Positions 1,568-29,342 of a stretch of DNA of 32,000 nucleotides are shown here, one piece after another (positions within the stretch are counted from its first letter, which is position 1; each line of letters begins with the position of its first letter). The position numbers and the translations under genes are program-made. The notes beneath the pieces are model-generated. The model saw only the letters and a list, made by a program, of their open reading frames with translations, did no database searches and was not told the origin of the DNA. Source of the stretch: Cohaesibacter marisflavi (lineage in GTDB: Bacteria; Pseudomonadota; Alphaproteobacteria; Rhizobiales; Cohaesibacteraceae); NCBI RefSeq assembly GCF_900115225.1, contig NZ_FOVR01000001.1, forward strand, positions 501,727 to 533,726, in the 5' to 3' direction.

Positions 1568-1592
1568 TTCAGCACCCACAGGAGCAAATATC

Positions 1593-2798: not shown

Positions 2799-2813
2799 CA
2801 ACAGGCGGTGACC

Positions 2814-2839: not shown

Positions 2840-2862
2840 CAATCAATCAAAAGGATACGATC

Positions 2863-4548: not shown

Positions 4549-4551
4549 CCT

Positions 4552-5399: not shown

Positions 5400-5408
5400 G
5401 GGGCGATC

Positions 5409-5759: not shown

Positions 5760-5932
5760 AGCAGGTTGCTTTTGCCTATCTTGGATGGAGCCCTAGCGAG
5801 TTCAATCAAGCAACCTTGCGCGATTATGCCGACGCGATAGAGGGTTTTAACCAGCGGTATGGCGAGCCAGAAAAACCAACCATGTCCAAGGAACGGTTCG
5901 CAGAATTGAGGGCGCGATATGGCGGAAACTGA
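5720..5932 (+). CDS. -1 frame extension of the chaperone (g10.1 / rcc01693-like segment); predicted fusion product spans 5409..5932
   Basis: The -1 frame is open from 5651 to 5932 and encodes VAFAYLGWSPSEFNQATLRDYADAIEGF, resembling the LGLSP.EFW.LTP.E motif of the small GTA tail chaperone. No ATG, GTG or TTG start lies upstream of that motif. Confidence 0.55.
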   Translation, partial: AGRGSDRIPFRRIKQVAFAYLGWSPSEFNQATLRDYADAIEGFNQRYGEPEKPTMSKERFAELRARYGGN

Positions 5933-7802
5933 TCTTGAAAAACTGGTCTTGCGGATTGAGGCGAACACCACCCAATTCAACAAGGCCTTGAAGAAAATCG
6001 AGAAGAACACCGCGTCCAGCATGGGCCGAAGTGAAAAAAGCGTTCTTAAATTCACTTCGCGCCTTGGCGGTTTGGGCAAGGCTGCAAAGGGGGCCGTTTC
6101 TGCTGTTGGTGGTCTGGCTGGCATTGCTGTCGGCGGTGGGCTGGCTGGCATTGGGGCAACGATCAAATCAACCACAAGTCAAATTGTTGATCTTGCCTCT
6201 GAGGCAAAACGGGCCGGTGTGAGCTTTGAAGCCTTTCAGGAGTTGGACTATGCAGCGGGCAAAAACAAGGTCAGCATTGATGCTTTGACCGATGGCCTTA
6301 AAGAAATGCAATTGCGGGCTGACGAATTCATATCAACGGGGGCAGGATCGAGCGCAGAAGCCTTTCAGCGGCTTGGATATGACGCCAAGGAACTCAAACA
6401 ACGGCTAAAAGAGCCTGACAAGCTCTTTGAAGACATTATCGGACGCCTGCAACAGCTTGATAGGGCGGCGCAAATCCGCGTGTCTGACGAGATCTTTGGC
6501 GGCACTGGCGGCGAACAATTTGTTCAAATGCTCGGGGATGGCGTTGAAGGCTTGCGCAAAGCACGCAAAGAGGCGCGCGATCTTGGCTTGGTGATGAATG
6601 ATGAGCTGGTTGATAAGGCCAAAGAGATTGACCGGCAATTCCAGACCATCACCACCCGCATTGGAACCGGCCTGAAATCGGCGGTGGTTGAGGTTGCAAG
6701 CGAGCTGTCCAACCTGATCGGGCGTTTTCTGGAGCTTGAGAACGCCATGCCCGATGCATCAAGCCAAGCGCGGGGCGCGACTGCAGCCAGACGCGCACGG
6801 CGTGGTACGGTTCAAGGGCGGACATTTGCCGAAATTTTCGGGTCTGATGATGAAACGAATTATGCAAGCGGGGCGGCTGGCCGAAGACAACGGCGCAATG
6901 CACAGCGAACAAGCATCCAAACAGCGTCAGCGACAAGCACGCCAAGTGATCTGGTTGAAACGATACCGTCAACAGCGTTCAACGTGCCGGGCTCTGGCGG
7001 TGGTTCCGGGTCTGGCGGCAATGCCGATCAGCAAGCCGATAAGGTGCAAAAGGTCATTCTAGCCCTTGAGCAACAGGCGCAACAGCTCGGGCGCACGTCC
7101 GATGAGCAGGAACTCTATAACGCCTTGGCAAAGGCGGGTGTGAGCCTTCAGAGTGAAGAGGGGCAGGCTATCGCGGCGGCTGTTAATGGCCTTCAGGCAA
7201 AGCGTGTGGCGATGCAAGAGGCAATCAGCACCTCAAGGGCCATGCAGCTTGAGACCGAACAGATTGCGCAGAGTTTCGACTATCTGGGGCAATCGGGCGT
7301 TGATACGCTCTTGGACATTGTAAGCGGGGCGTCTTCTGCTGAGGATGCAATGCGCTCCTTTGCCTTGCAGATCGCCAACGCGGCGGCGCAAGCAGCGCTC
7401 TTTGGCTCCGGGCCTATGGCGTCTTTCATGTCTGCCTTGACGGGAACATCTGGCGGCGCATTGACCGGGCTTTTCACCTCTCTTGCGGGGTCCATTACTT
7501 CAAGCGGATCTGCGCTTGATCTGTCTTCCCTTGTGACCGGTGGGCGCGCTGGCGGCGGGATTGTGTTGCCTGGTCATCTCTATGAAGTGAACGAAACAGG
7601 GCAAGAGCTGTTTTCGCCAAACGTGGCCGGACGGATTGAACCAAATCGCCCCTTTGGCTCGGCGCATGATGGCGCGGGCAGTCAAGGCGACACGCACAAT
7701 TGGTATATTTCCACGCCTGACGCTCAAAGCTTCAAACAGTCCAAAGGCCAGATAGCCGCGAACATGGCGCGCCTTGTGGCACAGGGCGGACGCAATCAAT
7801 AG
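5919..7802 (+). CDS. Tail tape measure protein
   Basis: 627 aa. Contains a Gly/Ala-rich hydrophobic stretch (GGLAGIAVGGGLAGIG), long helical regions and low-complexity segments. Located after the chaperone pair. Confidence 0.85.
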   Translation: MAETDLEKLVLRIEANTTQFNKALKKIEKNTASSMGRSEKSVLKFTSRLGGLGKAAKGAVSAVGGLAGIAVGGGLAGIGATIKSTTSQIVDLASEAKRAGVSFEAFQELDYAAGKNKVSIDALTDGLKEMQLRADEFISTGAGSSAEAFQRLGYDAKELKQRLKEPDKLFEDIIGRLQQLDRAAQIRVSDEIFGGTGGEQFVQMLGDGVEGLRKARKEARDLGLVMNDELVDKAKEIDRQFQTITTRIGTGLKSAVVEVASELSNLIGRFLELENAMPDASSQARGATAARRARRGTVQGRTFAEIFGSDDETNYASGAAGRRQRRNAQRTSIQTASATSTPSDLVETIPSTAFNVPGSGGGSGSGGNADQQADKVQKVILALEQQAQQLGRTSDEQELYNALAKAGVSLQSEEGQAIAAAVNGLQAKRVAMQEAISTSRAMQLETEQIAQSFDYLGQSGVDTLLDIVSGASSAEDAMRSFALQIANAAAQAALFGSGPMASFMSALTGTSGGALTGLFTSLAGSITSSGSALDLSSLVTGGRAGGGIVLPGHLYEVNETGQELFSPNVAGRIEPNRPFGSAHDGAGSQGDTHNWYISTPDAQSFKQSKGQIAANMARLVAQGGRNQ

Positions 7803-7814
7803 GGGCTTTCAGAC

Positions 7815-8444
7815 ATGGCGGCATTTTTGGAAATTGTCTTTCCGGTCAAAATCGGACTTGGCGCAACGGGCGGACCACAGCGCAAAACGCAAGTGGTGCA
7901 AAGCGGATCGGGCAAGGAAGAACGCAATCAGCAATGGGCCAATTCCCGGCGCTCTTGGGATGTCGGCACCGGCATCCGCGATATATACGAGGCCGAACAA
8001 GTGCTTTCTTTCTTCGAGGATGTGCGCGGGCGGCTTTCCGGCTTTCTCTTTTGCGACCCGTTTGATTTGCGCTCTTGCGCCATTCTGGGCAACCCGAGCG
8101 CGACGGATCAGGCGATAGGCACAGGCGACGGGGCAACAACTGCCTTTCAGCTTACCAAGACTTACGGCAGCGCAAATCCATACATGCGCAAAATCAGCAA
8201 ACCGAAACAGGATTCCGTTTTGGTGGCTGTTGATGGCGTGGCGCTCGATGCGGCTGATTTCAGCGTTGATCACACAACCGGTCTTGTCACCTTGGCGGAC
8301 CCGCCAGCGGTGGACGCGGCTGTTACGGCTGGCTTTGAATTTTATGTGCCGGTGCGCTTTGACACAGATGATCTATCCATCGCTTGGGAAAATAACGCGC
8401 TTATCTCTGTTCCTTCCATTCCCGTTCTGGAGCTGATTTTATGA
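7815..8444 (+). CDS. DUF2460 / TIGR02217-like distal tail protein (RcGTA g12 equivalent)
   Basis: The N-terminal F.E..FP..I..G..GGP...T.V....SG.E.RN pattern is present. Position after the tape measure; ATGA overlap at 8441-8444. Confidence 0.75.
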   Translation: MAAFLEIVFPVKIGLGATGGPQRKTQVVQSGSGKEERNQQWANSRRSWDVGTGIRDIYEAEQVLSFFEDVRGRLSGFLFCDPFDLRSCAILGNPSATDQAIGTGDGATTAFQLTKTYGSANPYMRKISKPKQDSVLVAVDGVALDAADFSVDHTTGLVTLADPPAVDAAVTAGFEFYVPVRFDTDDLSIAWENNALISVPSIPVLELIL

Positions 8445-9340
8445 AGACTTTGCCCGATGGCATGCAAGCCCATCTTGATAGCGGGGCCACAACGCTTTGT
8501 TGGTGCTGGAAACTGACCAGAAGCGATGGGGCAATCTATGGCTTTACTGATCATGATTGCGATCTGGTTTTTGACGGTGTGACCTATTCGGCGGACAGCG
8601 GTTTTACAGCAACCGAGCTGCAATCAAGCCTTGGGCTCTCGGTTGATAATGTGGATGTTGAAGGCGCGCTTTCTGCTGATTTCATCACTGAGGAAGACAT
8701 TGCGGCGGGGCTCTATGATGGGGCAGGGGTTGAGGTCTGGCGGGTCAACTGGATGGATCTTGCCCAACGCCTTTTGATGCGCTCGGGCAATCTTGGCGAG
8801 ATCACGCGCGGGGATACCTATTTCAGTACGGAAGTGCGCGGGCTGGCAGCTGTACTACAGCAAAAGCAAGGGCGTGTTTATCAGGCCGCTTGTGATGCCA
8901 CCTTGGGGGATGAGCGGTGCGGGCTGGATGTTTCAAACGGGGCCTATTCGGTTGATGTGGTAGTAACCGGACAGACAGGCGGGCAAGTGCTCCAGATTTC
9001 CGGGGCTGATGCCTATGAGGCCAATTGGTTTGACCGGGGCACTCTGACCTTTACCAGTGGCGAGAATGACGGGATCAGCTACGCGCTGCAAAGCCATGTG
9101 GTGACAAGCGGTATTGTCTCTGTTGGCGTCTGGTCACCTTTCCTCAAGAGCGTTGCTGTGGGTGACACGATCACCCTTGTTGCTGGCTGTGACAAGCATT
9201 TTGCGACCTGCGTCAAGAAATTTGACAACGGGGCGAATTTTCGCGGATGCCCGCACATGCCGGGCAATGACTTTGTGACCACCTATCCAAGCCCTGACAG
9301 TGACGATTTATCCGGTGAGCATCGCTATGACCAATATTAA
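8441..9340 (+). CDS. DUF2163 / BR0599-like tail hub protein (RcGTA g13 equivalent)
   Basis: The motif L.SGATTLC.CW...R.DG...GFTDHD.DL.FDG.TY is characteristic of this family. Confidence 0.75.
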   Translation: MKTLPDGMQAHLDSGATTLCWCWKLTRSDGAIYGFTDHDCDLVFDGVTYSADSGFTATELQSSLGLSVDNVDVEGALSADFITEEDIAAGLYDGAGVEVWRVNWMDLAQRLLMRSGNLGEITRGDTYFSTEVRGLAAVLQQKQGRVYQAACDATLGDERCGLDVSNGAYSVDVVVTGQTGGQVLQISGADAYEANWFDRGTLTFTSGENDGISYALQSHVVTSGIVSVGVWSPFLKSVAVGDTITLVAGCDKHFATCVKKFDNGANFRGCPHMPGNDFVTTYPSPDSDDLSGEHRYDQY

Positions 9341-9767
9341 ACGAGACCAGATCATAGAATGCGCGCGGGGCTGGCTGGGCACGCCTTACCACCATCAAGC
9401 CAGCGTCAAGGGCGTTGGCTGTGATTGCCTTGGATTGGTGCGGGGTGTTTGGCGCGGGCTTTACGGCTTTGAGGCTGCAAATATTCCGGCCTATTCGCCA
9501 GATTGGGGCGATGCCACCAATGCAGAAAGCTTGCTATCTGCGGGGCGAACCTATTTGCAGGAAATCGCCCTTGATGAGATGGGGCCGGGGGATGTGTTTG
9601 CGATCCGTTGGCGCGGGGCTAAGAGCGCCAAACATCTCGGCATCCTGACCGGTGAAACGCGATTTATCCACGCCTATGAAAAATGTGGTGTTGTCGAGGT
9701 GAGCTTATCCCCTCACTGGCGGCGGATGATTGCCGCTGCTTTCCGCTTTCCCAATCTGGAGGTTTGA
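9327..9767 (+). CDS. NlpC/P60-family phage cell-wall peptidase (RcGTA g14 equivalent)
   Basis: W.GTPY.HQ......G.DC.GLV (catalytic Cys context) and a downstream H.GI motif are present. ATG at 9327; GTG at 9300 is an alternative start. Confidence 0.75.
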   Translation: MTNIKRDQIIECARGWLGTPYHHQASVKGVGCDCLGLVRGVWRGLYGFEAANIPAYSPDWGDATNAESLLSAGRTYLQEIALDEMGPGDVFAIRWRGAKSAKHLGILTGETRFIHAYEKCGVVEVSLSPHWRRMIAAAFRFPNLEV

Positions 9768-9769
9768 AC

Positions 9770-12700
9770 ATGTCAACACTGGTTTTGTCAAAGGTCGGCA
9801 CGGTGCTTGGCGGGGCCTTGTTGGGGCCAATCGGGGCAATGATCGGCGGCACGATTGGCGCGCTTGGTGGGGCCGTTATCGACAATATGCTTTTGGCCGG
9901 TGGCAAGGATACCCACACGCAAGGGCCGCGTCTTGATAGCCTGGAGGTGACCAGCTCGACAGAAGGCACCGCGATCAACAGAGCTTACGGGCGGGCGCGC
10001 ATTGGCGGACAAGTGATCTGGGCAACCACCTTGGAAGAGGTCGCCACCACCACCAAACAGGGCGGCAAGGGCGGCGGGGCAAAAGCCAAGACAACCAGTT
10101 ACACATATTACGCAAATTTTGCGGTTGGCATTTGCGAAGGGCCGGGGGTCTATCTCAACCGGATCTTTGCGGATGGGACAGAAATCGACATGTCAAAAAT
10201 TGACTTTCGCTTTTACGATGGCAGCGAAAGCCAAGAACCTGACAGCCTGATTGAAAGCGTGGAAGGCGACGGGCTGGCGCCTGCCTATCGCGGGCTTTGC
10301 TATATTGTCTTTGACCGGCTGGAGCTGACCGACTACGGAAGCCGCATTCCGCAATTCACCTTTGAAATTATCCGGCCAGCACCGACACGCCAGCTTGAGA
10401 GCGCCATTTGTGGGGTCAATCTCATTCCGGGGTCAACCGAATTTGGCTATGAGCCGGATGTGATGCTCAAGCAAGAGCTGTCATCAAGTGGCGCGGTGAT
10501 CGGGCAAGAATACGAAAATGTGCATCAGAAACAGGGCGCGTCTGATTTGTCCGTTTCTCTTGATCAACTTGCAACCGTGATGCCGAATATCAAAAGCGTT
10601 TGCCTTGTGGTGGCTTGGTTTTTTGATGATTTGCGCTGTGGTGGCTGCAGCATCCGGCCAAAAGTGGAAATCAGCACCAAGGCAACATCGCCCTATAACT
10701 GGCAGGTTGCGGGCCTGACGCGAGACACAGCGCTTTTAATCACGCAAATGACTGATGATGATGGCAATGATTATCCCGTTTATGGGGGCACGCCTTCAGA
10801 CAAAGCTGTCATTCATGCCATTACCGAGCTGAAAGCGCGCGGCTATGATGTCATGCTTTACCCGTTCATTATGGGCGATATCCCGCAAGGCAACGGCCTT
10901 GCCGATCCTTGGGGCGGGGAAGAGCAAGCCACCTTCCCATGGCGTGGCCGGATCACTTGCCACCCGGCAGCAGGGCAGACCGGAAGCCCGGACCAGACCA
11001 GCACGGCGGGCGATCAGGTGAGCGCCTTTCTAGGCTCGGCGGCTGTGGCTGATTTTTCCATTTCAGATGAAACAATCGCCTATACCGGCGCGGATGAGTG
11101 GAGCTATCGGCGCTTTGTTCTGCATCTGGCCAATCTGGCCAAAGCGGCGGACGGTGTGGCGTCAATCTGCATCGGTTCGGAAATGGTCGGGCTAACCACG
11201 GTGCGCGATGAAGCCACAAGCTATCCCTTTGTAACCGGCCTTAAAGCCTTGGCTGTTGATGTGCGGGCGATCCTTGGGGAAACGGTAAAAATCGGCTATG
11301 CGGCGGACTGGTCAGAATATCACAGCCACAGGCCGGGGGATGGCTCGGGCGATGTGATTTTCAACATGGACCCGCTGTGGTCTGATGATGATATTGATTT
11401 CATTGGAATTGATAATTATTTCCCTCTGTCTGATTGGCGGCGGGGCAGGGACCATCTTGATTATGATCAGGACGCGGGGCATGTGACGCCATACAGCCTT
11501 GATTATCTCAAGGCCAACATCGAGGGCGGGGAATATTATGATTTCTACTATGCGGACGATGCGGCGCGTGTGGCGCAAGAGCGTACAGCGATCAGCGACG
11601 GGACGCATGGGGAAGACTGGATTTACCGCCAGAAAGATTTAAAAAACTGGTGGCTCAATAGCCATTATAACAGGCCGGGCGGTGTGCGTGATAGCGCGGC
11701 AACAGGCTGGACGCCAGAAAGTAAACCAATCTGGTTTACCGAGTTGGGATGCCCGGCGCTTGATCTGGGCAGCAATCAGCCCAATGTGTTTTTTGATCCC
11801 AAATCCAGTGAGAGCGCCTTGCCCTATTTTTCCAGCGGCGCGCGCGATGATGTGCAACAGCACAGCCATTTAAGGGCAACGCTCGACTATTGGGCCGATG
11901 ATGCCAACAATCCGGCCTCAAGCCTTTATGACGGTTCCATGATCGATATGGACGCTGTGCATGTGTGGAGCTGGGACGCGCGTCCATTCCCCTCCTGGCC
12001 ATTGGATGGGGCAAGCTGGGCGGATGCGGACAACTGGCAATATGGGCATTGGCTATCTTCTCGGGTGGGCATGGTCTACATGCCCGACCTGATGCGTCAT
12101 ATCTCCGAGGAATACGGCTTTACCGCCTATGATTTTGATGCGGCTTATGGGGCCTGCGATGGCTATGTGATCGATAGCACCATGAGCTTACGCAGTGCTT
12201 GGCAACCTCTGGAACTGGCTTTCGGCTTTGACTTGATCGAAACGGGCGGCATCATCAAGGCGGTTTCCCGAAAGGCCATTCCCCTTTGTGCGGATGTTGA
12301 TCAAGAGCGCTTACAGGATACGAACGGCGAGAGCGGTGGCGAGCTGGTCACGCTCACACGGGCGCAAGAAAGTGAACTCGCACGCGGCGTGCGCATTACC
12401 TATCTCAATGCGAACAAGGCTTACAATTCCGGCACAGTGACCGCTTGGAATAATTTTACAGGCGCAACGAATGTGTCTGAAAGTCAGCTTGCTATTGTCA
12501 TGGATGAGGACAGGGCGCAAGGCGTGGCTGAGTATCTTTTGCAAGATGCTTGGGCCGCGCGGGAAACCGGACAATTTGCGCTTATGCCTTCCCTGCTGGC
12601 CTTGGAACCGGGCGACGTTCTGGAAGTGACCACGCAAAAGGGTGCGCGGGAATTGCGCTTGACCGATGTAAAGGACGGGGAAGGGCGCACATGTGAGGCA

Positions 12701-13714
12701 AGCGGATTTATTGATGCCGGCTTGTCTGTTTCCGGTGCGCGCTATTCCTTGCGTTTCAGTCGGGCCAGCGCGGGACTTTCGCGCATTTTGGCGCGCTTTA
12801 TGGATTTGCCGTTGCTCCAGCCGGATAATGACCCGAATGCGGGCTATGTGGCTCTTTCTGCCAAGCGTTGGCCGGGGGCGGGGCTGGTGTTGCGCTCGAC
12901 CAATGAAAGCAGTTGGCAAACGAATATTGAATTTACCCATTCGGCCATCATTGGCGAAACCCTAAACGCCTTGGACAAAGGGCCGCTTTATGTCTTTGAC
13001 CGGGGCAATGCGCTGGAAATCGAGATTTATAGTGGCTCGTTGCTGTCTGTCTCTGAAGAGGAATTATTCTCTGGCAGCAACGCCTTTGCCATCGAAACAA
13101 GTGCGGGCGTTTGGGAAATCATCCAAGCGCAAACTGTGGAGCTGATCGGCTCAAAACGTTATCGCCTGACGGACCTTTTGCGCGGGCAGCTCGGCACAGA
13201 AAACGCTATGCTGGAAAGTGTCGCGGCCGGGGCGGCGCTGGTCTATCTTGATCAGGGCGTTGCGCAAGCAGACATGGGCCTATCTGATATCGGCATTAGC
13301 TATTATTGGCGCTATGGACCGGAAGGCGAAACGGTTGGCTCGGATCTCTTCACAACCGAGCAACACGCCTTTAGCGGGCGGGCGCTCAAGCCCTATGCGC
13401 CAGTGCATGCCCGATGGGCAAGCGATGAGGCGGGCGATCATACCATTACCTGGATCAGACGGACGCGGCTGGATGGCGACGGGTGGGAGCTTTATCAAGT
13501 GCCTCTGGGGGAAGAGCTGGAGGCCTATGAAGTCGATATCATAAGCGGCGGCGATGTGGTGCGCACCATCGAGACGAGCACGCCAGAAGCCAGCTATAGC
13601 GCCACACAAAGACAGACCGATCTAGGCAGCGCAACGGCTGGCTATGAGGTGGCAATCTATCAAATCAGTCAAACAATAGGGCGCGGGGATGCGCTGAAGG
13701 TGGGGTGGGGGTGA
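9770..13714 (+). CDS. Host-specificity / baseplate 'megatron' protein (RcGTA g15-like; glycoside-hydrolase-like TIM-barrel region plus phage tail domain)
   Basis: 1,314 aa. ATG at 9770 follows GGAGG at 9758-9762. The Gly-rich hydrophobic N-terminus (GGALLGPIGAMIGGTIGALGG) is typical of the family. It is the last gene of the conserved tail block. Confidence 0.85.
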   Translation: MSTLVLSKVGTVLGGALLGPIGAMIGGTIGALGGAVIDNMLLAGGKDTHTQGPRLDSLEVTSSTEGTAINRAYGRARIGGQVIWATTLEEVATTTKQGGKGGGAKAKTTSYTYYANFAVGICEGPGVYLNRIFADGTEIDMSKIDFRFYDGSESQEPDSLIESVEGDGLAPAYRGLCYIVFDRLELTDYGSRIPQFTFEIIRPAPTRQLESAICGVNLIPGSTEFGYEPDVMLKQELSSSGAVIGQEYENVHQKQGASDLSVSLDQLATVMPNIKSVCLVVAWFFDDLRCGGCSIRPKVEISTKATSPYNWQVAGLTRDTALLITQMTDDDGNDYPVYGGTPSDKAVIHAITELKARGYDVMLYPFIMGDIPQGNGLADPWGGEEQATFPWRGRITCHPAAGQTGSPDQTSTAGDQVSAFLGSAAVADFSISDETIAYTGADEWSYRRFVLHLANLAKAADGVASICIGSEMVGLTTVRDEATSYPFVTGLKALAVDVRAILGETVKIGYAADWSEYHSHRPGDGSGDVIFNMDPLWSDDDIDFIGIDNYFPLSDWRRGRDHLDYDQDAGHVTPYSLDYLKANIEGGEYYDFYYADDAARVAQERTAISDGTHGEDWIYRQKDLKNWWLNSHYNRPGGVRDSAATGWTPESKPIWFTELGCPALDLGSNQPNVFFDPKSSESALPYFSSGARDDVQQHSHLRATLDYWADDANNPASSLYDGSMIDMDAVHVWSWDARPFPSWPLDGASWADADNWQYGHWLSSRVGMVYMPDLMRHISEEYGFTAYDFDAAYGACDGYVIDSTMSLRSAWQPLELAFGFDLIETGGIIKAVSRKAIPLCADVDQERLQDTNGESGGELVTLTRAQESELARGVRITYLNANKAYNSGTVTAWNNFTGATNVSESQLAIVMDEDRAQGVAEYLLQDAWAARETGQFALMPSLLALEPGDVLEVTTQKGARELRLTDVKDGEGRTCEASGFIDAGLSVSGARYSLRFSRASAGLSRILARFMDLPLLQPDNDPNAGYVALSAKRWPGAGLVLRSTNESSWQTNIEFTHSAIIGETLNALDKGPLYVFDRGNALEIEIYSGSLLSVSEEELFSGSNAFAIETSAGVWEIIQAQTVELIGSKRYRLTDLLRGQLGTENAMLESVAAGAALVYLDQGVAQADMGLSDIGISYYWRYGPEGETVGSDLFTTEQHAFSGRALKPYAPVHARWASDEAGDHTITWIRRTRLDGDGWELYQVPLGEELEAYEVDIISGGDVVRTIETSTPEASYSATQRQTDLGSATAGYEVAIYQISQTIGRGDALKVGWG

Positions 13715-13892
13715 TTGTGCGTCTGGGCTTGGCAACTTTTAGCTAAAATGAAGGAGCACTGGCACACGCAATAAAAGGTGACCGGTAATCGAGACCGATA
13801 GGCGACATTCGACTGTTCTGGGGTGGCTCTGACGAGCTTGCCAAAAGCAGCTGTTCGCACGAGACGCAGCATTGGTCTCTCATTAAACCGCT

Positions 13893-14330
13893 TTAAGATG
13901 AAACAGCCTTGTCAGAGACAATGCGCTCCAGAGCGTTATATGCGTCCTGAGCAACATCGACCCTAAGATGGCATTTGGCTGAAGAAGTAACGTCAACGGG
14001 AGGGCTGATGTCTGCAAGCTTTAAGACCTGCCTGAGATGGGGGCCGGATAGAGGAATATAATCGAATTGCTCTCCAGAAAATCGATTATATATGCGGCCA
14101 ATAAACCACTTGCTCCGCCTCTTTGCTTGTTTTGCTGAAAACAATCGAAAATGAAGAACCCCTAAGAGTTCCTGATCATCCAAGGGGGCGGCATCAGCAG
14201 CTTTGCTAAATGCTGAGAATGCAGGCGACATTCCCGCTGTTACCGCGTCTGAGAAACCCCGAGACGTCGCGCTCTGCTCTTCACTGATCCGAATGATCGG
14301 TTGCGTATTCATTGCACTGCCCAGAACCAA
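13893..14330 (-). CDS. Hypothetical protein (145 aa from TTG at 14330; 139 aa from ATG at 14312)
   Basis: The ORF lies 12 nt downstream of the 79-aa gene on the same strand. No domain recognised. Confidence 0.45.
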   Translation of the reverse strand: MVLGSAMNTQPIIRISEEQSATSRGFSDAVTAGMSPAFSAFSKAADAAPLDDQELLGVLHFRLFSAKQAKRRSKWFIGRIYNRFSGEQFDYIPLSGPHLRQVLKLADISPPVDVTSSAKCHLRVDVAQDAYNALERIVSDKAVSS

Positions 14331-14342
14331 TGAAATCCATAT

Positions 14343-14582
14343 TCACCAAACAGCGAATAATACAACAATCAGGACAACCCATGGGATTAGTCCCAACCAT
14401 CCTGCCATAGTCGCGTCACACAAATATCGGCTGTTTTTTGAGCTCTTGAAGCCAAGCCAATTATATCTCTTTTCTTCAGACGATATTGGTTCGACAGAAA
14501 TGTAGCCAAATGACACAATGGGCAGCAGAATTCTCGCAGTTGAGTATCCAACGGCTTCAAGTAGAACATCATAAACAAACAT
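14343..14582 (-). CDS. Small hydrophobic / membrane protein (79 aa)
   Basis: ATG at 14582 is preceded on the minus strand by AGGAGA with about 7 nt spacing. The C-terminal segment GWLGLIPWVVLIVVLFAVW looks transmembrane. Confidence 0.55.
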   Translation of the reverse strand: MFVYDVLLEAVGYSTARILLPIVSFGYISVEPISSEEKRYNWLGFKSSKNSRYLCDATMAGWLGLIPWVVLIVVLFAVW

Positions 14583-14800
14583 AGGAACTCTCCTGCTTGC
14601 TGGGACGATACACCAATAGAGGTTATTTGAAAATGGTGCATCCGACTGGGATCAACAAACGGGGCCAACAGATTCGGTCCGAAGCAGTCCTCGGTCGTTC
14701 TATAGCCTGTTGTATAGCAGAACGCGCGATTGGACATTCGTTGACCGCCCAAGGACGGAGTTACAGAGTTCGACACAGCTATGTGTGAGTATGGAGATCA

Positions 14801-15277
14801 ATGATGAAACTAGAAGAGTACTATAGACCTCGCTTGTCCGAGGCTGGCTACGATCTTTTGGCTGTTTTCAGCAGGTTTGAATACGCACTGAAGAAGGGCG
14901 GGTTTCGCCGAGAAAACTACCCTGACGCAGCCTGGCCAACATTTGCAAACCGTCTTCCCGATCCGTTTTTTCAAAAGATGCGAGAGGCTTCGGAAGCCCA
15001 AATCTTTTTTGAAGCGCCGCCAGATCATCTCGTAACCACGGCTGACGGGGGTGTAGCCTGGTCAGGAGCACCAATTACACCAAACGACGCGGCCAGCCTC
15101 TTTAAAAGCATCAAGACTGCACGCAACAACCTGTTTCATGGGGATAAGAAACACGACAACGACCGAGATACCCGGCTAATGAAAGCGGCATTGTTTGTGC
15201 TGAACGAAGCCTACCAAGAAGCGGAAGTAAATGAAGGGTTTGATAGTTTTGTAAGCGCCATGGAGTTTGGTCTTTAG
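14801..15277 (+). CDS. Hypothetical protein with a HEPN-like Rx4H motif (TARNNLFHG)
   Basis: 158 aa with GGAG at 14793-14796 upstream (ATG at 14801 or 14804). It has a single R-N-N-L-F-H-G motif in a predicted helical C-terminal half. Convergent with the TIR gene. Confidence 0.5.
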   Translation: MMKLEEYYRPRLSEAGYDLLAVFSRFEYALKKGGFRRENYPDAAWPTFANRLPDPFFQKMREASEAQIFFEAPPDHLVTTADGGVAWSGAPITPNDAASLFKSIKTARNNLFHGDKKHDNDRDTRLMKAALFVLNEAYQEAEVNEGFDSFVSAMEFGL

Positions 15278-15364
15278 CATATCGGCCCTATCCTGCCGTT
15301 CGATTGATCAGGGGGGGGGCTCCGACGCGTTTCCCGAAAGCTGCCGTAAAAGCTCAAAGCTACT

Positions 15365-16567
15365 TTAGTCGTTGGAGGTCCGTTGTAAGAAGACTACCCC
15401 TTGTTGATCGTCAGGGAGCCCCACTGACCCAAAATCCCCTATTTCCAAGCTAGTTTCAGAAAATGAGATATTAGATCGGTAAATGCTAAACATCGAAGAG
15501 CGATCATCACGAGGTCGATTGTTTCGCACCTCACATCTTTCGAAAGAAACATCACTCTTTTTTATTATAAACGCATCAAAGCAGAAATTGTCATAAAACT
15601 CTACTTCTACCAATTTCAAAGAAGATGTCTCTATCGCTCTAAATACGCCATATGAGCACTTGTAGATATCGCAGTTCTGAAATCGAACGAATTGGCTATT
15701 CTCAATTTCAAAACCATAGGTTCCACATCCGAAGATTTTGCAATTATCGACACATATTGAAGAGCAATGCTTGAAGTTTAACACAGCACCTTTACACTCC
15801 CCTCCCTTCGGCCAGTGACCAAGGGCTGTGCCTTCTATTGTGACACCATGGCAATCTTCAAAACTCATCGTAGTTGCATAGGTGGGTTCAACGGTTATAC
15901 GAGCATCACTGCTTCCCTTAATTGTTAGATTGTTTACGCCTCTAAATACCAGTTCCTCTCCGTCGAACACCTCTCGAGCAAACACGTGATGATTATCAGG
16001 AACTTCAATCCCAGAAAGAGAAAAGCTCCTTCGAACGTAGATACTTGTATTTGAGCCTATGCAACTCAGGAACTCATCTGCCGAATAGACGTCTACTTTA
16101 CGATGATCAATCGCTCCTACCTCTCGCCCTTCGAGCGACGAGATATGGGTGACTAGCTCAGAGAAGTTGGCCTGAAAGCAGTCTATGTACTGATACTGAG
16201 CAAACGAAATGCCATCAACACGAGTTTTCGGTATTTGGCATTCCTCAATTCTCACCGGCAATACAAACGTTTTTCCAGCAGGAACAAGCGCCAGCCTTGC
16301 TAGCGCTTGCCGAAATTCTGATTGTACATATCCGACTTTCTGCACAGAGATTTCAGAGAACAAAGGTAAAAAGTATTTTGATGTTCGGATAACATCGCGA
16401 AGCCGGTCTTCCCACAATTCCCCTGGCTTCAGTCCTTCAAGTTTGTACGGAGAAGGAGGTTTGTCCATCCACGGACTTAATCCTGCCTCGCGCAACCTTC
16501 GATACAAAGCTTGTGCTTGTAGCAAGTCTTCACTTGCGTATGATATAAAGCAAATTGGGTCTGTCAT
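15365..16567 (-). CDS. TIR-domain protein fused to a right-handed parallel beta-helix repeat region
   Basis: The N-terminus has ICFISYASED..A..L...L...G...WMD...L.PGE.W...L...I..S.YFLPLFS......GYVQSEF (TIR core with a candidate catalytic Glu). The C-terminal ~200 aa have periodic ~22-aa units (NLTIKG, CHGVTIEG, ICVDNCKIFGC, VRFQNCDIYKC, VSFERCEVRNN). ATG at 16567; TTG at 16576 is an alternative start. Confidence 0.75.
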   Translation of the reverse strand: MTDPICFISYASEDLLQAQALYRRLREAGLSPWMDKPPSPYKLEGLKPGELWEDRLRDVIRTSKYFLPLFSEISVQKVGYVQSEFRQALARLALVPAGKTFVLPVRIEECQIPKTRVDGISFAQYQYIDCFQANFSELVTHISSLEGREVGAIDHRKVDVYSADEFLSCIGSNTSIYVRRSFSLSGIEVPDNHHVFAREVFDGEELVFRGVNNLTIKGSSDARITVEPTYATTMSFEDCHGVTIEGTALGHWPKGGECKGAVLNFKHCSSICVDNCKIFGCGTYGFEIENSQFVRFQNCDIYKCSYGVFRAIETSSLKLVEVEFYDNFCFDAFIIKKSDVSFERCEVRNNRPRDDRSSMFSIYRSNISFSETSLEIGDFGSVGLPDDQQGVVFLQRTSND

Positions 16568-16926
16568 AGTATCCAATACAATATCAAATTATTAGAACTT
16601 GCAATTGCATTACGTCGCACATACTTCAAAAAATAACAACCAAAAGAGTTGCGGATATGCCGCCTCTAAAACTCGAAATAATCAGCTTTTTAATACCCAA
16701 TTTGGACACGAAGCGAATTAGTGCGTCGCAGCATTTGTTAAAGCAGCTCTTTCAGCATAGAGATTGGAATTCGCTGCCCAAAGCCGGGATTCGCCAGAGA
16801 TGACTTTCAAGAATCCTGCGTCCCCATTCCTAACATTCGATTAAAGCAGGACATATTGAAAAGATATGTGACGGAGTATGGTGGATGTGTTAGGCTGGAG
16901 CAGCTCAAAAGATAAAGAGAAAATCA

Positions 16927-17520
16927 ATGGCGAGTATAATAAGCACTATTACTATTGCTGTTATTGGGGTTTTCCTGACTGCATGGTTTAATCACATTCA
17001 TTGGTTAAACAAAAATAGAGAAGAAATAAGAATTAGAGAAACTATTGAAGCAACTTCTTTAGTTAGAGATATTGCAAATATCTTTGACAAAAGAATTGTT
17101 ACTCAGAGGCTAATGCTGAGAAATATATTTTTGGAAAACAGGGAGGTTATGCTAGAAGAATACAAAAAATCTCTGAGAGAATATAGCGAAAGATATAACG
17201 AAGTTAGATTTAGACTGCGATATTTTTCAAGTTACAGTTATGTGATAGACTTTGAAAGAGAGCTAAACGACAAAATTGTTGAAAATTCATACGAAATTGA
17301 GCATATATTAAAGTACGGTAGACCAAAAAAACTAAAATTTTCAGAATTAAACGAGCAATTAAATATTATTTCAGTAAGAGTGTATGAGTACTGCGCGCTG
17401 TTAACTTCAGATATTTCTTCTGAAAATATTGGTGTCTTAAAAAAAATAAATGATTGGAAGGATCCAAATAACAAGTATATAAGTTCTTTGTTTTTAATTA
17501 AAAGACTTCTTTCTTTGTAA
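16927..17520 (+). CDS. Hypothetical N-terminally anchored membrane protein (197 aa), very AT-rich
   Basis: It has one N-terminal TM segment (IISTITIAVIGVFLTAWF) followed by a charged helical region. The 3' end overlaps the convergent GT51-like gene by 23 nt. Confidence 0.5.
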   Translation: MASIISTITIAVIGVFLTAWFNHIHWLNKNREEIRIRETIEATSLVRDIANIFDKRIVTQRLMLRNIFLENREVMLEEYKKSLREYSERYNEVRFRLRYFSSYSYVIDFERELNDKIVENSYEIEHILKYGRPKKLKFSELNEQLNIISVRVYEYCALLTSDISSENIGVLKKINDWKDPNNKYISSLFLIKRLLSL

Positions 17521-18193
17521 GACGAAGAGATGCAAGATAGTCCATTCTTTTGTGAACCCGGCTTGTCCACCAAGGATTGGAAGATTGGAATAATTGAAGA
17601 ATTTCTTCTGGACTTGAAAATACATCGCGATCACTTACCGAGTAATATATATTGGGAGGCAACGGGTAGGGCAAAAGACTCGCAATAAAAGCACTTTGTT
17701 CAGGCGTGAGGTTGGAGGGGGCCGTATCAAATAGAAATTTTGAAGCTTTAATGATACCGTGCATGTTTGGCCCAAAATATGCAGAATTTATGTAAGCAAG
17801 TAGTATTTCCTCTTTTGAACGATGTAAATTTATAATAGCCGCAAAAATTATTTCGCGAATTTTTCGAGATACAGTTCTTTCCCTTCGTCCTGTGCAGGTT
17901 CTAACCAATAGTTGCTCTATGGTGCTGGTTCCGCCGAATTTTCCATAAGTAATGTATCGTTTTAGGCCTCGAGGTAGAGAGCGTAGTTCAAATCCTAGAT
18001 GCAGAAAATACCGCCGATCTTCGAGAAGAAGGATATCATGGATTTGTTCTGGTATGATTTTATCTTCTTCGGAAAGAAAAAAAGAAGAATCTACAGAATA
18101 ATATTGATCAATCCAATTTAATAGTTCATCAAGGTCAACATTAAGACGAATCAGTAACTTTTTAAGGCTTAAATTATTTCGCGTTTTGGTCAT
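17498..18193 (-). CDS. GT51 (peptidoglycan glycosyltransferase / transglycosylase)-like protein lacking a membrane anchor
   Basis: GT51 motifs occur in order: EDRRYFLHLG (EDxxFxxHxG), GGTSTIEQL (GGSTITQQ-like), RKIRE (RKxxE), EILLAYINSAYFG and LTPEQSAFIASLLPYP. No hydrophobic N-terminal segment in the first 60 aa. Confidence 0.65.
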   Translation of the reverse strand: MTKTRNNLSLKKLLIRLNVDLDELLNWIDQYYSVDSSFFLSEEDKIIPEQIHDILLLEDRRYFLHLGFELRSLPRGLKRYITYGKFGGTSTIEQLLVRTCTGRRERTVSRKIREIIFAAIINLHRSKEEILLAYINSAYFGPNMHGIIKASKFLFDTAPSNLTPEQSAFIASLLPYPLPPNIYYSVSDRDVFSSPEEILQLFQSSNPWWTSRVHKRMDYLASLRLTKKEVF

Positions 18194-18690
18194 TTTTCAA
18201 AATCAAACTTCGTTAAATATTCTACACCTGTCAAAGAACATTAGGCTTATCAAAACCACCCTTCCTAATTGTTTCCCTTGAAGGTATTCATGATATCACG
18301 CAAATCTTATGTTGTTGCACATATTTGAGCAAACACTATTGAGCTCTGTTGTAAAAAAGTCGCAAGGAATTTCATTAAAACACGTTGGGCGAAATGGTCC
18401 CGAAAAACAAGACAAAGCACAAACGTCGGCTATGAAATGATGTTGGTTTTGACATTAGCGGTAGCACAATTAGGAAACAAATTTACCATTTGAGGCCAAG
18501 TAAATTTGCAACAGAGTCCGATTGGCCGCTTCCGCCTGCGGCATTAGAGATCTCGCACCAGCGTAAGATAATCGCTTTCCGCCCCTTTTGCAAAACAACC
18601 TTCTGAAGGCTCGAATTTCTACTCATATCGAAAGCTCGCATGCAGTCAGATCGTGATCTCTCTTAACTCTCACTTTTCAACCACCACAAT

Positions 18691-18736
18691 CCATCCCTTA
18701 CCCTCGTGTTGATCGAAACCAACTGAGGGTCTTTTC
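18691..18736 (+). promoter_or_regulatory. Conserved 5' leader hairpin (copy A) sequestering the SD sequence of the DUF2793 gene
   Basis: ACCCTC at 18700-18705 pairs with GAGGGT at 18725-18730, and GAGG is the SD 8 nt before ATG 18737. By-eye alignment gives 38/49 identical positions with copy B at the same spacing to the start codon. Confidence 0.5.
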
Positions 18737-19723
18737 ATGTCGGCTACAGCGCTCTTGGCTTTGCCCTATATTGCAGCCAATCAGAATCAGAAACACGTGA
18801 CCCATAATGAAGCCTTGCGGATGTTGGATGCGCTTGTGCAGCTATCCGTATTGGATCGCGATTTGACAGCGCCACCCGATACGCCAAGCGATGGCGCGCG
18901 TTATATCGTGGCTGATGGGGCAACTGATGCATGGGCCGGATGGGATGGCAGCGTTGCCGCTTATCAAGATGGGGCGTGGGTTGAATTTGTGCCTTTGCCG
19001 GGGTGGCTGGCCTGGGTATCCGATGAAAGCAAACTCCTTTGCTATGATGGGGCTGACTGGGTTGATTTCCTTTCTGCTGGCCTTGGTACGGCTTTGGGGA
19101 ACGGCTCTTTTGACAAGATCGGGGTGAACGCCTCGGCAGACGCAACCAACCGCCTAGCGCTTTCCTCGGCGGCTAGTCTTTTCAATCACGCTGGAAACGG
19201 CCATCAAATCAAGGTCAATAAAGCGGCGGGGGCTGACACAAACAGCCTGTTGTTCCAAACCAATTGGTCTGGCCGCGCTGAAATGGGCTGCGCGGGCAAT
19301 GATGATTGGTCCATCAAAGTGAGCGCGGACGGGACAAGCTGGCTTACGGCTCTTTCTATCGATAGCGCAACCGGCCTTTTGAAAGGCCTTAATTGGGTTG
19401 GTGATGTTGTCGACGGTGGGCTAGGGGCTGTCATTGAAAGCGGAAGTAACGCAAACGGAACCTATGTTCGTTTTGCTGATGGATTGCAAATCTGCACGTC
19501 TTTGGTGACGTCCAGTGACAGCACTTATGTCATTTGGACCTATCCGGCTGAATTCTATGGTGCGGCTGAAAATGTGATGATGACAGCGCGGGGCTTGACG
19601 CCTTATCACGCGCAGCCCAACGGCTCGGGCTCAACGGCAACCATTGCCGTGAATTGTTGGGATCTGAGTGGCACGCGCGTTGAAACTGACATTACCGTTT
19701 TTGCAATTGGGCGTTGGAAATAG
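18737..19723 (+). CDS. DUF2793-like phage/GTA tail-fibre or spike-like protein, copy 1
   Basis: The N-terminal LPYI...Q.QKHVTHNEAL..LD.LVQL.V.DRDL..PP motif and Y.DG.W.F.P..GW pattern are present. It follows the tail genes. Its paralogue is at 28017-29003. Confidence 0.75.
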   Translation: MSATALLALPYIAANQNQKHVTHNEALRMLDALVQLSVLDRDLTAPPDTPSDGARYIVADGATDAWAGWDGSVAAYQDGAWVEFVPLPGWLAWVSDESKLLCYDGADWVDFLSAGLGTALGNGSFDKIGVNASADATNRLALSSAASLFNHAGNGHQIKVNKAAGADTNSLLFQTNWSGRAEMGCAGNDDWSIKVSADGTSWLTALSIDSATGLLKGLNWVGDVVDGGLGAVIESGSNANGTYVRFADGLQICTSLVTSSDSTYVIWTYPAEFYGAAENVMMTARGLTPYHAQPNGSGSTATIAVNCWDLSGTRVETDITVFAIGRWK

Positions 19724-20562: not shown

Positions 20563-21312
20563 ATGTCTAAAAAGGAAATCAAGGCCATCCAGAAGGCACT
20601 CAAGGCAAAGGGCTTTTATAGCGGTGCAATCGACGGATTGTGCGGGCGGCTGACCAACCGGGCAATCATCGCTTTTAAGAAGTCAATTGGCTATCGGGCG
20701 CGCGCTTATGTGGGGCCGCTCACAAAAGCCGCTCTGTTTGACGGGCGCGTCGACATGGTGACTGCAGGCCGGACCAAACGAGAAAAGGCCATTGCGGCGC
20801 TGGATGAACCAAAGTGGCTTCAGGTGGCGCGATCCTATCTGGGCTTGCGCGAATATAAGGGCAACCGGCATAACCCGAAAATTCTGGAATGGTGGCTTAA
20901 AATCCGTATGCCGTTCACCGATGATGAGACGCCATGGTGTGCGGGCTTTGTTGGCGGGGTGCTGGAAGAATGCGGGATCCGCTCGACCAGATCGGCGGGC
21001 GCTCGCTCTTACCTCTGGCAGAATTGGGGCTTGCGGCTGAGTGGGCCTTGTGTGGGCGCTGTGGTGGTGTTCTGGCGGGGAAGCAAGACAGGCTCAAAGG
21101 GGCATGTTGGCTTTGTGGTCGGACGTGATCAGCATGGCAATCTGATGGTGATCGGCGGCAACCAGGGGGACGCGGTGACAATCCGGCCATTCTCGACAGA
21201 CCGCGTCTTGTCCTATCATTGGCCTGAAGATGATATCCCATATAGTGGGGGCGGCTTTGATAGCTTGCCGCTTGTCAACTCGGATGGAACGCTTTCAACC
21301 AACGAAGCGTAA
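20563..21312 (+). CDS. Endolysin: N-terminal peptidoglycan-binding domain plus C-terminal CHAP/NlpC-P60-like (TIGR02594-like) amidase domain
   Basis: IQ.AL...G.Y.G.IDG..G..T..AI..F is a PG_binding_1-type repeat. The C-terminal half has PWCA.FV and GHVGFVVG motifs (Cys and His of a cysteine peptidase). Confidence 0.8.
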   Translation: MSKKEIKAIQKALKAKGFYSGAIDGLCGRLTNRAIIAFKKSIGYRARAYVGPLTKAALFDGRVDMVTAGRTKREKAIAALDEPKWLQVARSYLGLREYKGNRHNPKILEWWLKIRMPFTDDETPWCAGFVGGVLEECGIRSTRSAGARSYLWQNWGLRLSGPCVGAVVVFWRGSKTGSKGHVGFVVGRDQHGNLMVIGGNQGDAVTIRPFSTDRVLSYHWPEDDIPYSGGGFDSLPLVNSDGTLSTNEA

Positions 21313-28016: not shown

Positions 28017-29003
28017 ATGGAGCAGACAACAAACCTAGCCTTGCCCTATATCGTGGGCAATCAGAACCAGAAGCACATCACCCACAACGAAGCTCTGCGG
28101 ATGCTGGATGCGCTCGTGCAGCTCTCTGTCGCTGATCGGGATCTCTCGGCACCGCCAGATGCGCCCACCAATGGTGTACGCTATATCGTAGCGGATGGTG
28201 CCAGTGATGCATGGACCGGATGGGAGGGCAGCATCGCAGCCTATCTGGATGGGGCGTGGGCCGAACTGCAACCGCTGGCTGGCTGGCTGGCATGGCTCGA
28301 GGATGAGAACAGACTGCTCTGCTTTGACGGAGCGTCTTGGTCCGATTTCATCTCTGCTGGCTTAGGCAGTGCCTTGACGAACGGATCTTTCGACAAAATA
28401 GGGGTCAACGCCACCGCAGATGCGACAAACAGGCTTGCGCTTTCAGCAGGCGCCAGCCTGTTCAACCATGCTGGAAATGGTCATCAGATCAAGGTCAACA
28501 AGGCGGCTGCCAGCGATACAAACAGTTTGCTGTTCCAGACCAACTGGTCCGGACGCGCAGAAATGGGCTGTGCGGGCGATGATGACTGGTCCGTCAAGGT
28601 CAGTGCCGATGGCAGCAACTGGACAACGGCATTGCAGGTTGATGCAAGCAACGGGCTGCTGGCTGCTGCCAATTGGGTCGGCAACGTCTCCAATGGAGGG
28701 CTGGGGGCGGTCCTTGAAAGCGGTAGCAACGCGAACGGAACCTATGTGCGCTTTGCTGATGGCCTGCAGATTTGCACGTCGCTGGTCACGTCAAGCGATA
28801 GCACCTTTATCATCTGGACCTATCCGGCTGAATTTTCAGGCGCTGCGGAAAATGTCATGATGACGGCGCGCGGTCTTACACCCTATCATGCCCAGCCTAA
28901 CGGATCCGGGTCTGCCTCAACCATTGCGGTGAATTGCTGGGACCTCAATGGCAGTCGCGCCGAAACTGACATCACGGTTTTTGCAATCGGGCGCTGGAGG
29001 TAA
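28017..29003 (+). CDS. DUF2793-like tail-fibre or spike-like protein, copy 2 (orphan locus among core genes)
   Basis: Same length (328 aa) as copy 1. It aligns gaplessly with about 63 mismatches counted by eye (about 80% aa identity). Confidence 0.75.
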   Translation: MEQTTNLALPYIVGNQNQKHITHNEALRMLDALVQLSVADRDLSAPPDAPTNGVRYIVADGASDAWTGWEGSIAAYLDGAWAELQPLAGWLAWLEDENRLLCFDGASWSDFISAGLGSALTNGSFDKIGVNATADATNRLALSAGASLFNHAGNGHQIKVNKAAASDTNSLLFQTNWSGRAEMGCAGDDDWSVKVSADGSNWTTALQVDASNGLLAAANWVGNVSNGGLGAVLESGSNANGTYVRFADGLQICTSLVTSSDSTFIIWTYPAEFSGAAENVMMTARGLTPYHAQPNGSGSASTIAVNCWDLNGSRAETDITVFAIGRWR

Positions 29004-29012
29004 GGAGCCACC

Positions 29013-29342
29013 ATGAAAATCAACCTTGTACCACAAAGACGCGATGATACGCTGGTCTTGCAATGCGCGGGGGAAGAGCTGACCCTCAATGGGCAGGCTC
29101 TGGACCTGTCGATCATTCCTGCGGGCGGAAATCTCCCACTTGATACAGTGGGGTGCGAATGGCTCGCTTCTGATATCACGCGGAATGGAGAAGGCGATCT
29201 GGCACTCTCACTCATCCTGCCTCATGGCTATATTGCCGATCCAACCACGCAAGCGGCAAAAGCGGTGCTCTATCCCTCTGCGATCAACGTGACAGAAGAG
29301 GGGCCGATCTCACTACCAAGTTATGAGGCGACCGCCTCCTAG
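29013..29342 (+). CDS. Small partner protein, copy 2 (109 aa)
   Basis: Paralogue of 19732-20079. Shared blocks include INL.PQRRDD, ALDLS.IPAG, LSLILP, DPTT..AKAVLYP, VTEEG.I.LPSYEAT. Confidence 0.65.
   Translation: MKINLVPQRRDDTLVLQCAGEELTLNGQALDLSIIPAGGNLPLDTVGCEWLASDITRNGEGDLALSLILPHGYIADPTTQAAKAVLYPSAINVTEEGPISLPSYEATAS

Follow-up and report, generated by a model that had tools for sequence, protein, structure and literature searches.

We analysed a 32,000-nucleotide stretch of the genome of Cohaesibacter marisflavi (Alphaproteobacteria, Hyphomicrobiales), here called the window, and within it a cassette of two convergent genes that covers 1.27 kb. The gene on the minus strand, at 17498-18193, encodes a short peptidoglycan glycosyltransferase of family GT51, with 231 residues and no membrane anchor, assigned with Pfam and Foldseek. 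The gene on the plus strand, at 16927-17520, encodes a protein of 197 residues with one N-terminal transmembrane helix, referred to below as the partner. The two genes run tail to tail, and in the sequence their 3' ends overlap by 23 nt on both strands (17498-17520). Both products are 100% identical to C. marisflavi proteins at NCBI.

An earlier note, made from the letters of this DNA alone, had given these coordinates, strands, lengths and the overlap, and all of them stand. It also placed the pair in the most AT-rich block of the window and on the cargo island of a prophage. Both placements are right. The 500-nt bin with the lowest GC content of the whole window is 17001-17500, at 0.282, genes for head, tape-measure and tail proteins flank the island, and a gene for a TIR protein adjoins the cassette. 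The 27-30% GC that the note estimated for the enzyme gene fits the partner gene (29%) but not the GT51 gene (37.5%).

Judged by three independent tests, namely Pfam, a PDB profile search and fold comparison of a predicted model, the enzyme is a genuine GT51 domain. The Transgly profile (PF00912) matches residues 43-178 at E=1.3e-31, with 109.8 bits against a cut-off of 27, and the match ends at profile position 155 of 178. In the PDB profile search, the GT domain of Aquifex penicillin-binding protein (PBP) 1a is found at E=3e-26. The top 43 Foldseek matches of the AlphaFold model (pLDDT 81) are all GT51 structures, with no other fold among them. The model is all-helical with a head-plus-jaw shape, and its TM-score is about 0.7 to both 3d3h and 3nb6.

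A family-specific N-terminal helix (residues 1-45) is followed by the GT51 head and jaw (about 46 to 180) and then by a C-terminal region that is again specific to the family (180-231). At only 231 residues, it has no second (transpeptidase) domain. It stays far below all NCBIfam equivalog thresholds for MtgA and for PBP1A, PBP1B and PBP1C, and therefore belongs to a separate GT51 lineage. The scores are 73.3 against 182.65 for MtgA (TIGR02070), 94.4 against 494.2 for PBP1C and 99.6 against 508.75 for PBP1A.

Motifs 1 to 4 of the family are all recognisable. Motif 1 (EDxxFxxHxG) reads E58-D59-R-R-Y-F63-L-H65-L-G67; it aligns to the EDR motif of Aquifex PBP1a, and the codon of the catalytic Glu58 lies at 18020-18022 on the minus strand. 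Motif 2 (GxSTxTQQ) is GGTSTIEQL, the second Q being L across the family. Motif 3 (RKxxE) is R110-K111-I-R-E114, in which Glu114, read from the sequence, is the second catalytic glutamate (codon 17852-17854, minus strand). Motif 4 (KxxIxxxYxN) is K127-EEILLAY-I-N-SAYFG and aligns to PBP1a and PBP2.

The claim that all GT51 motifs are kept holds for motifs 1-4, but motif 5 (RRxxVL) is not recognisable. The region where it should lie, residues 180-231, has no detectable similarity to any solved GT51, although a family-specific W209...R216-M-x-Y-L helix might be its equivalent. Both catalytic glutamates named in the earlier note (E58 in EDRRYF, E114 in RKIRE) are present and invariant. In an alignment of 29 distinct enzymes with a median identity of 36%, all 29 keep E58, D59, H65, G67, S90-T91-I92, Q94, R98, R110-K111, E114, K127, Y139 and G141, and likewise the family-specific P177, P179, W209 and R216.

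In canonical GT51 enzymes the jaw is a cationic amphipathic surface that docks on the membrane (PMC6053601). The jaw of the window enzyme has the canonical length and is more cationic, with 9 K/R against 6 in Aquifex, and isoelectric points are 8.9-10.4.

The enzyme starts at the ATG at 18193. This is the first start codon downstream of an in-frame stop, so that no upstream extension can supply an anchor, and the N-termini of the family agree with it. Transmembrane segments were sought with Kyte-Doolittle (KD) hydropathy in 19-residue windows, with a cut-off of 1.6. The enzyme has no segment of this grade, its maximum being 1.01, which bears out the reading that the N-terminal anchor is missing. 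The 13-14 short GT51 relatives scanned have no convincing transmembrane helix or signal peptide either, with values of at most 1.50. Four further metagenomic enzymes exceed the cut-off, in segments that are interrupted by charges or internal.

Two kinds of candidate signal were considered and dropped. The hydrophobic N-termini of L037, L042 and L044 (about 1.7) are unconvincing as anchors, because D and K lie within them and the clade is rich in AT and isoleucine. The family motif SLRRxLIxLN resembles a twin-arginine (Tat) signal; a charged helix follows it, with no hydrophobic region, and the window enzyme has KK there. No Sec or Tat signal was found in any family member examined. At the place of the transmembrane helix of Staphylococcus aureus MGT, the enzyme has a charged, moderately amphipathic helix (residues 10-32; 237 aligned columns with 3vmt_A). 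Having lost both anchor and export signal, the enzyme would stay in the cytoplasm. It is thus predicted to be a soluble cytoplasmic protein, and it looks catalytically intact.

The partner was characterised from its hydropathy and charge and from an AlphaFold model (pLDDT 85.6). In the model an N-terminal transmembrane helix runs into a four-helix bundle, with helices at residues 2-65, 72-100, 103-130 and 138-164. The transmembrane helix, MASIISTITIAVIGVFLTAWF, covers residues 1-21 (16927-16989, plus strand), with a KD(19) value of 2.14 at residue 1. The C-terminal tail, DWKDPxNxYISxxxLIKRLL, is strongly conserved and falls in a low-confidence region of the model.

In 78 of 97 close relatives the transmembrane helix starts at residue 5 or earlier. 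The window partner has no K or R before the helix and two in the 15 residues after it. Over the 97 partners, K and R together average 0.29 ahead of the helix; for the 15 residues that follow it the mean is 3.77, and 92 of the partners have more after it than before. By the positive-inside rule this bias puts the bundle on the cytoplasmic side, and it is therefore predicted to face the same compartment as the enzyme.

The convergent product had been described as N-terminally anchored and otherwise unrecognisable, and both points are accurate. Besides the hydrophobic helix from residue 1, it has no significant match in Pfam, NCBIfam, PADLOC, PHROGs, PDB sequences, PDB folds or viral folds. DUF4760, the UniRef label of one homologue (P0033), has no match at E<=10 for P0033 and nine partners, and is absent at E<=0.01 among 40 members of the superfamily. 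A HMMER scan of 1.84 billion cluster representatives found at least 455 relatives (E<=1e-3), nearly all of about 200 residues. The partner family is an undescribed superfamily.

Cassettes with both genes complete were collected through homologue look-ups of either protein and a metagenome scan, in Alphaproteobacteria genomes and metagenomes. We found 26 distinct cassettes, and the genes are convergent in every one, so the pairing of the enzyme with a membrane protein, proposed from the window only, is borne out by the homologue neighbourhoods. The 3' ends overlap by 11-61 nt (median 31.5) in 25 cassettes and abut in the remaining one; the frame relation of the overlapping ends is not conserved. 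Pairwise identities of enzyme and partner correlate (Mantel r=0.90, a value reached by none of 5000 permutations), which means that the two travel together. The most distant partner that could be looked up is still paired with a Transgly gene.

In comparison with a cassette that is 83-88% identical, dN/dS is 0.23 for the GT51 gene and 0.087 for the partner gene. Both are therefore under purifying selection, and both open reading frames (ORFs) are real genes. A scan for promoters and terminators over 16500-18750 gave no more sites than shuffled sequence, and no terminator-like site lies within the 23-nt overlap. Antisense interference between the two genes would be compatible with the conserved 3' overlap and with its lack of a terminator.

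The pair is a conserved, self-contained and horizontally mobile unit. Wherever the flanks are long enough to measure, the GC content of the cassette is 6-29 points below theirs. Most cassettes stand alone between unrelated housekeeping genes, outside prophages: between carB and brnA in Paracoccus, between folA and gyrB in Ponticoccus and related assemblies, and elsewhere between guaA and fur, between thiE and a histidine kinase gene, or between GST and ABC-F genes, with other contexts seen at single loci. Among 140 neighbour ORFs from 22 loci, the Pfam families are mostly one-off housekeeping families. A profile search with an alignment of eight partner sequences matched two genomes only.

Prophages account for two of the cassette loci, namely the window and L016. 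The endolysins of the two share 83% identity, and some 2.8 kb of flanking sequence can be aligned at 74%. The site of the cassette differs between them: it is the slot between tail-protein and tail-fibre genes in the window and a place beside the integrase in L016. The two copies are only about 44-47% identical. The cassette was therefore acquired independently by these related prophages. Matches to GT51 obtained by tblastn in viral, phage and plasmid collections proved to be ordinary PBPs or contaminating chromosomes.

Each suggestive neighbour is confined to a single locus: the TIR gene to the window, DUF2971/PDC-S31 and ParD to L007, and BrnA to Paracoccus. L007 (142-1969, a metagenome contig) carries the closest relative of the window cassette, 83-88% identical. 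The neighbours of this copy are a ParD antitoxin gene and a gene whose DUF2971 product matches PDC-S31, a candidate system in PADLOC (E=8e-11). The cassettes of L008-L010 and L015 adjoin folA/thyA, and two further loci have ThyX neighbours; these genes of thymidylate synthesis (DHFR, ThyA, ThyX) may reflect shared clade synteny only. In a metagenome-assembled genome of Martelella (L018 6545-8639, CAXXRG010000001.1), the short GT51 gene is split by an insertion of about 1.5 kb that carries a Transposase_mut gene (IS256-family, E=4e-124), and the partner gene at 5986-6585 is intact.

A "transglycosylase domain-containing protein" of E. coli was considered as a second anchor-less case and is ambiguous, as the upstream RefSeq start gives a hydrophobic N-terminus. 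It has 181 or 211 residues depending on the start chosen (Pfam Transgly E=1.6e-22) and may be membrane-anchored if the longer start is used. It was seen at L047 3378-4540 and L048 9001-10163 (IncF plasmid NZ_CP050167.1; chromosomes NZ_CP118601.1 and NZ_CP119008.1). Its gene is co-directional with, and directly downstream of, that of a 182-residue protein with one hydrophobic segment, unrelated to the partner family. The pair lies in an island flanked by integrase and insertion sequence (IS) elements and is present in 2 of 5426 complete E. coli genomes.

As for the surroundings of the cassette, positions 1-13714 and 18737 onward of the window hold prophage genes of siphovirus type or like those of a gene transfer agent, with PHROG matches to a major head protein, a tape measure, tail assembly and a 1343-residue tail protein. 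Between the tail-protein gene (9683-13714) and the DUF2793 tail-fibre gene (18737-19723), both identified by PHROG and Pfam matches, lies the AT-rich cargo island of about 5 kb (13750-18700). Its GC content is 0.28-0.49, against about 0.54 elsewhere in the window. A PG_binding_1+CHAP endolysin gene (20563-21312) follows the tail fibre.

The island holds the cassette, a TIR-beta-helix gene, a weakly HEPN-like gene and two small ORFs without family match. The TIR-beta-helix gene (15365-16576, minus strand) adjoins the cassette and encodes 403 residues, with an N-terminal TIR_2 domain (E=1.8e-18) fused to a right-handed Beta_helix (E=3.4e-9). Its PADLOC matches are weak and only to TIR-containing models; it is likely a prophage-borne defence gene with an unusual C-terminal domain. 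The HEPN-like ORF, of 158 residues (14801-15277, plus strand), has a sub-threshold HEPN_Apea match (E=0.031). The two small ORFs, of 145 residues (13893-14330) and 129 residues (14387-14776), are both on the minus strand and have no match in Pfam, PADLOC or PHROGs.

The junction between the tail-protein and DUF2793 genes (window 13714-18737, L016 731-2425) is a variable cargo slot in this prophage lineage. Where the window has its 5-kb island, L016 has a different ORF of 367 residues with no recorded family. The tail-protein gene of L016 seems internally deleted, since L016 164-731 matches window 9727-10072 together with 13509-13738. A second 328-residue ORF, of the same length as the DUF2793 tail-fibre product, lies at 28017-29003 on the plus strand, and by blastn the tail-fibre region of L016 also matches window 28041-28103, 28704-28777 and 28989-29302. 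These matches point to a tail-fibre module that was duplicated or is present a second time, or else to another phage-like element within the window.

Within a very well-known family, the enzyme represents a new variant with an aberrant architecture. It has the same fold as MtgA/MGT (S. aureus MGT, 3VMT/3HZS) and the GT domain of class A PBPs (Aquifex PBP1a, 3NB6/2OQO), with an rmsd of about 4 Å at a TM-score of about 0.7 to the Aquifex domain. Motifs 1-4, both catalytic glutamates, the RK pair and a similar jaw length are shared. Unlike these enzymes, it has a charged amphipathic helix instead of an N-terminal transmembrane helix or signal, a replaced second Q in motif 2, an unrecognisable motif 5 and C-terminus, and always a dedicated membrane partner encoded convergently. 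GT51 enzymes are otherwise known solely from the outer face of the membrane (PMC6053601). Targeted full-text searches of the literature gave no report of an anchor-less or cytoplasmic GT51, nor of a GT51 in a conflict system. The two-gene system has not been described before.

Chemoreceptor and histidine kinase sensor domains are like the partner in that a transmembrane helix continues into an antiparallel four-helix bundle. The best PDB matches of the partner are Tar (4z9h, E=0.07, TM-score 0.58) and LytS-N (5xsj, TM-score 0.72), which are not significant; four-helix bundles are a generic fold. The Tar/Tsr and LytS domains are periplasmic and a second transmembrane helix follows them, whereas the partner has one helix and a charge bias that predicts the cytoplasm.

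Beside the observed conservation and mobility of a cassette with intact catalytic residues and a lost anchor and signal stands the scheme we infer for its topology, complex formation, substrate, toxicity and biological role. We tentatively propose a split GT51 that would work on the cytoplasmic side of the membrane, with lipid II as its substrate, and serve as the toxin in a conflict module; this is possible rather than probable. The partner would supply the membrane attachment and control of the enzyme in trans, possibly via its conserved C-terminal tail, and would either tether the enzyme to the inner membrane on its cytoplasmic side or keep it off there. The tethered enzyme would reach newly made lipid II before flipping. 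Polymers made on this side, the wrong one, would tie up the undecaprenyl carrier, which is scarce, as dead-end products, and wall synthesis would stop. The enzyme would then be the toxin of an addiction, abortive-infection or prophage-protection module and the partner its regulator or antidote. Because the transcription units converge and overlap, expression of either gene could dampen that of its neighbour. In favour of this reading, the most economical one, count the constant pairing and joint divergence of the two genes, the invariant catalytic residues, the predicted cytoplasmic placing of both enzyme and bundle, and the more basic jaw as a sign of membrane affinity. The low GC content, the lone sites among housekeeping genes, the divergent copies in two related prophages, the TIR neighbour in the window and the disrupted Martelella copy add mobile or conflict-like behaviour.

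Zeta and PezT toxins are kinases that act on UDP-GlcNAc, are neutralised by a soluble antitoxin and are encoded in a co-directional operon. They offer a works-like analogy only, that of a cytoplasmic enzyme that blocks wall synthesis by diverting a precursor. The cassette differs from them in having a GT51 polymerase, a membrane protein as partner and convergent genes. The toxicity of the proposed reaction is plausible, since dead-end cytosolic intermediates linked to undecaprenyl phosphate are described as detrimental (PMC11813082, PMC12826051).

Several points weigh against a toxin that acts at the inner face. The topology of the partner is based on the positive-inside rule only. Distant members of its superfamily (P0130, at L022 5001-5822, and P0139-P0203) are not linked to a GT51; one of them has a C-terminal PG_binding_1 domain (E=1.7e-18), and a subgroup with a conserved N-terminal KLFG(K/R)(Y/F)H(D/E) motif before the helix shows the opposite charge bias. 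The best, weak, fold matches of the bundle are periplasmic sensor domains. These three points hint that the bundle could be periplasmic, and the superfamily may occur in both membrane orientations. Two-gene toxin-antitoxin and defence modules are typically operons read in one direction rather than converging genes.

Neither protein has a match in PADLOC-DB v2.0.0 at E<=1, and 40 members of the partner superfamily gave isolated chance-level matches only. Among the 140 neighbour ORFs there is no recurrent defence neighbourhood, only generic ATPase or helicase matches to defence models with at most three members each. With neither a PADLOC match nor recurrent defence neighbours, the suggestion of abortive infection or superinfection exclusion in the earlier note gains no direct support. 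The cassette is absent from the viral, phage and plasmid collections searched, by tblastn of two partners and by scans of viral contigs. One Rhodobacterales clade keeps it at the same folA-gyrB position in at least two assemblies, a pattern closer to stable inheritance than to the behaviour of a fast-moving defence gene. Finally, colicin M, whose substrate is also lipid II, does no harm in the cytoplasm (PMC8469651), so access to inner-leaflet lipid II is not guaranteed.

The main rival, which we consider rather unlikely, is an exported toxin with its immunity protein, similar to colicin M (ColM) and Cmi. The GT51 would be harmless in the cytoplasm of its producer and reach the periplasm of a competitor by some route such as the cargo of a type VI secretion system, lysis or vesicles. 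Uncontrolled polymerisation of lipid II would there deplete the precursor and yield uncross-linked strands, and a periplasm-facing partner would neutralise the incoming toxin. The architecture offers a parallel: the cmi gene is found downstream of cma, on the other strand and under a promoter of its own; ColM lacks a signal peptide; and in Cmi a transmembrane anchor (residues 1-23) is joined to a periplasmic domain (PMC8469651). In both systems a signal-less, lipid II-directed enzyme stands tail to tail with a small N-terminally anchored protein, each gene having a separate promoter, and all 26 cassettes keep the convergent layout. The invariant catalytic residues, the one distant partner relative fused to PG_binding_1 and the weak matches of the bundle to periplasmic sensor domains also favour export, as does L018, where an intact partner beside an IS-disrupted enzyme gene resembles an orphan immunity gene. 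The two systems have no sequence or fold relationship, however. ColM degrades lipid II and has receptor and translocation domains, whereas the 231 residues of the enzyme are nearly all GT51, and the roughly 45 outside it, with one conserved helix, leave no room for such domains. Cmi has a soluble domain of alpha/beta fold, periplasmic and with disulfides; the partner, in contrast, is a bundle made of helices only, for which the charge bias of 92 of 97 sequences predicts the cytoplasm. Secretion-system genes do not recur, with a single Tle1-like domain match among the 140 neighbours, and it is not obvious that one more lipid II polymerase would kill when the periplasm already contains PBPs. That the cassette is a polymerase-based toxin system of either kind, with lipid II polymerised in the cytoplasmic leaflet of its own host or in the periplasm of a rival, is a serious possibility, if somewhat short of probable. 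The partner would then be an anchor, regulator or immunity factor, and the tail-to-tail overlap would serve as antisense control.

That the two proteins make up an ordinary, if split, cell-wall synthase is improbable; a non-classically exported enzyme would then work as an accessory monofunctional transglycosylase, the partner would replace its anchor or regulate it, and the prophage copies would remodel the wall of the lysogen. The lack of a Sec or Tat signal in the members examined and the predicted cytoplasmic bundle speak against this, and the low GC content, scattered sites and independent acquisitions by prophages point to an accessory or selfish element. The intact catalytic machinery, the alignment of the N-terminal helix with the transmembrane helix of S. 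aureus MGT (3vmt_A), the stable folA-gyrB position in one clade and the outer-face location of all other known GT51 enzymes (PMC6053601) would agree with such a synthase. A non-polymerising GT51 fold that would sense inner-leaflet lipid II, another sugar linked to undecaprenyl pyrophosphate or a phage-made glycolipid is quite improbable. The membrane partner would then be the effector, for example by perturbing the membrane, as a membrane protein is in many two-gene defence systems. The divergence of motif 5 and the C-terminal region beyond recognition fits a sensor, and so does the stronger constraint on the partner in the close comparison (dN/dS 0.087 against 0.23); the full invariance of both catalytic glutamates and the motif residues in 29 sequences at about 36% identity argues for retained catalysis, and a single transmembrane helix with a soluble bundle is not an obvious pore former. 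The idea of a decoy, also raised in the earlier note, is unlikely because all 29 enzymes keep the catalytic and phosphate-binding residues unchanged. A prophage lysis system, made of a holin-like membrane protein and an enzyme of lysozyme fold, is disfavoured to the point of being hard to credit, even though the GT51 head subdomain resembles lambda lysozyme (PMC6053601) and the window copy is within a prophage. This prophage already has its endolysin at 20563-21312, its late genes lie on the strand opposite to the cassette, most cassettes are outside prophages, and the enzyme sequence is GT51-specific, including the jaw and the pyrophosphate-binding motifs.

A lineage that keeps every catalytic residue without a route to the outer-face compartment is unexpected, all the more so for an enzyme always encoded with a dedicated membrane protein of an undescribed family. 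With its small size of 1.27 kb, the self-contained cassette lends itself to testing. Should the enzyme use lipid II of the inner leaflet, geneticists would gain a natural tool to probe how lipid II is flipped and how the undecaprenyl carrier is kept in balance, and mobile elements would have a toxin logic that is new for them. Should it be exported as an effector, it would be the first cell-wall toxin of the synthase type rather than the hydrolase type. As a toxin system of either kind, the cassette would be the first conflict system to weaponise a peptidoglycan polymerase, and the partner family, which numbers at least 455 cluster representatives, would be placed in a functional context for the first time.

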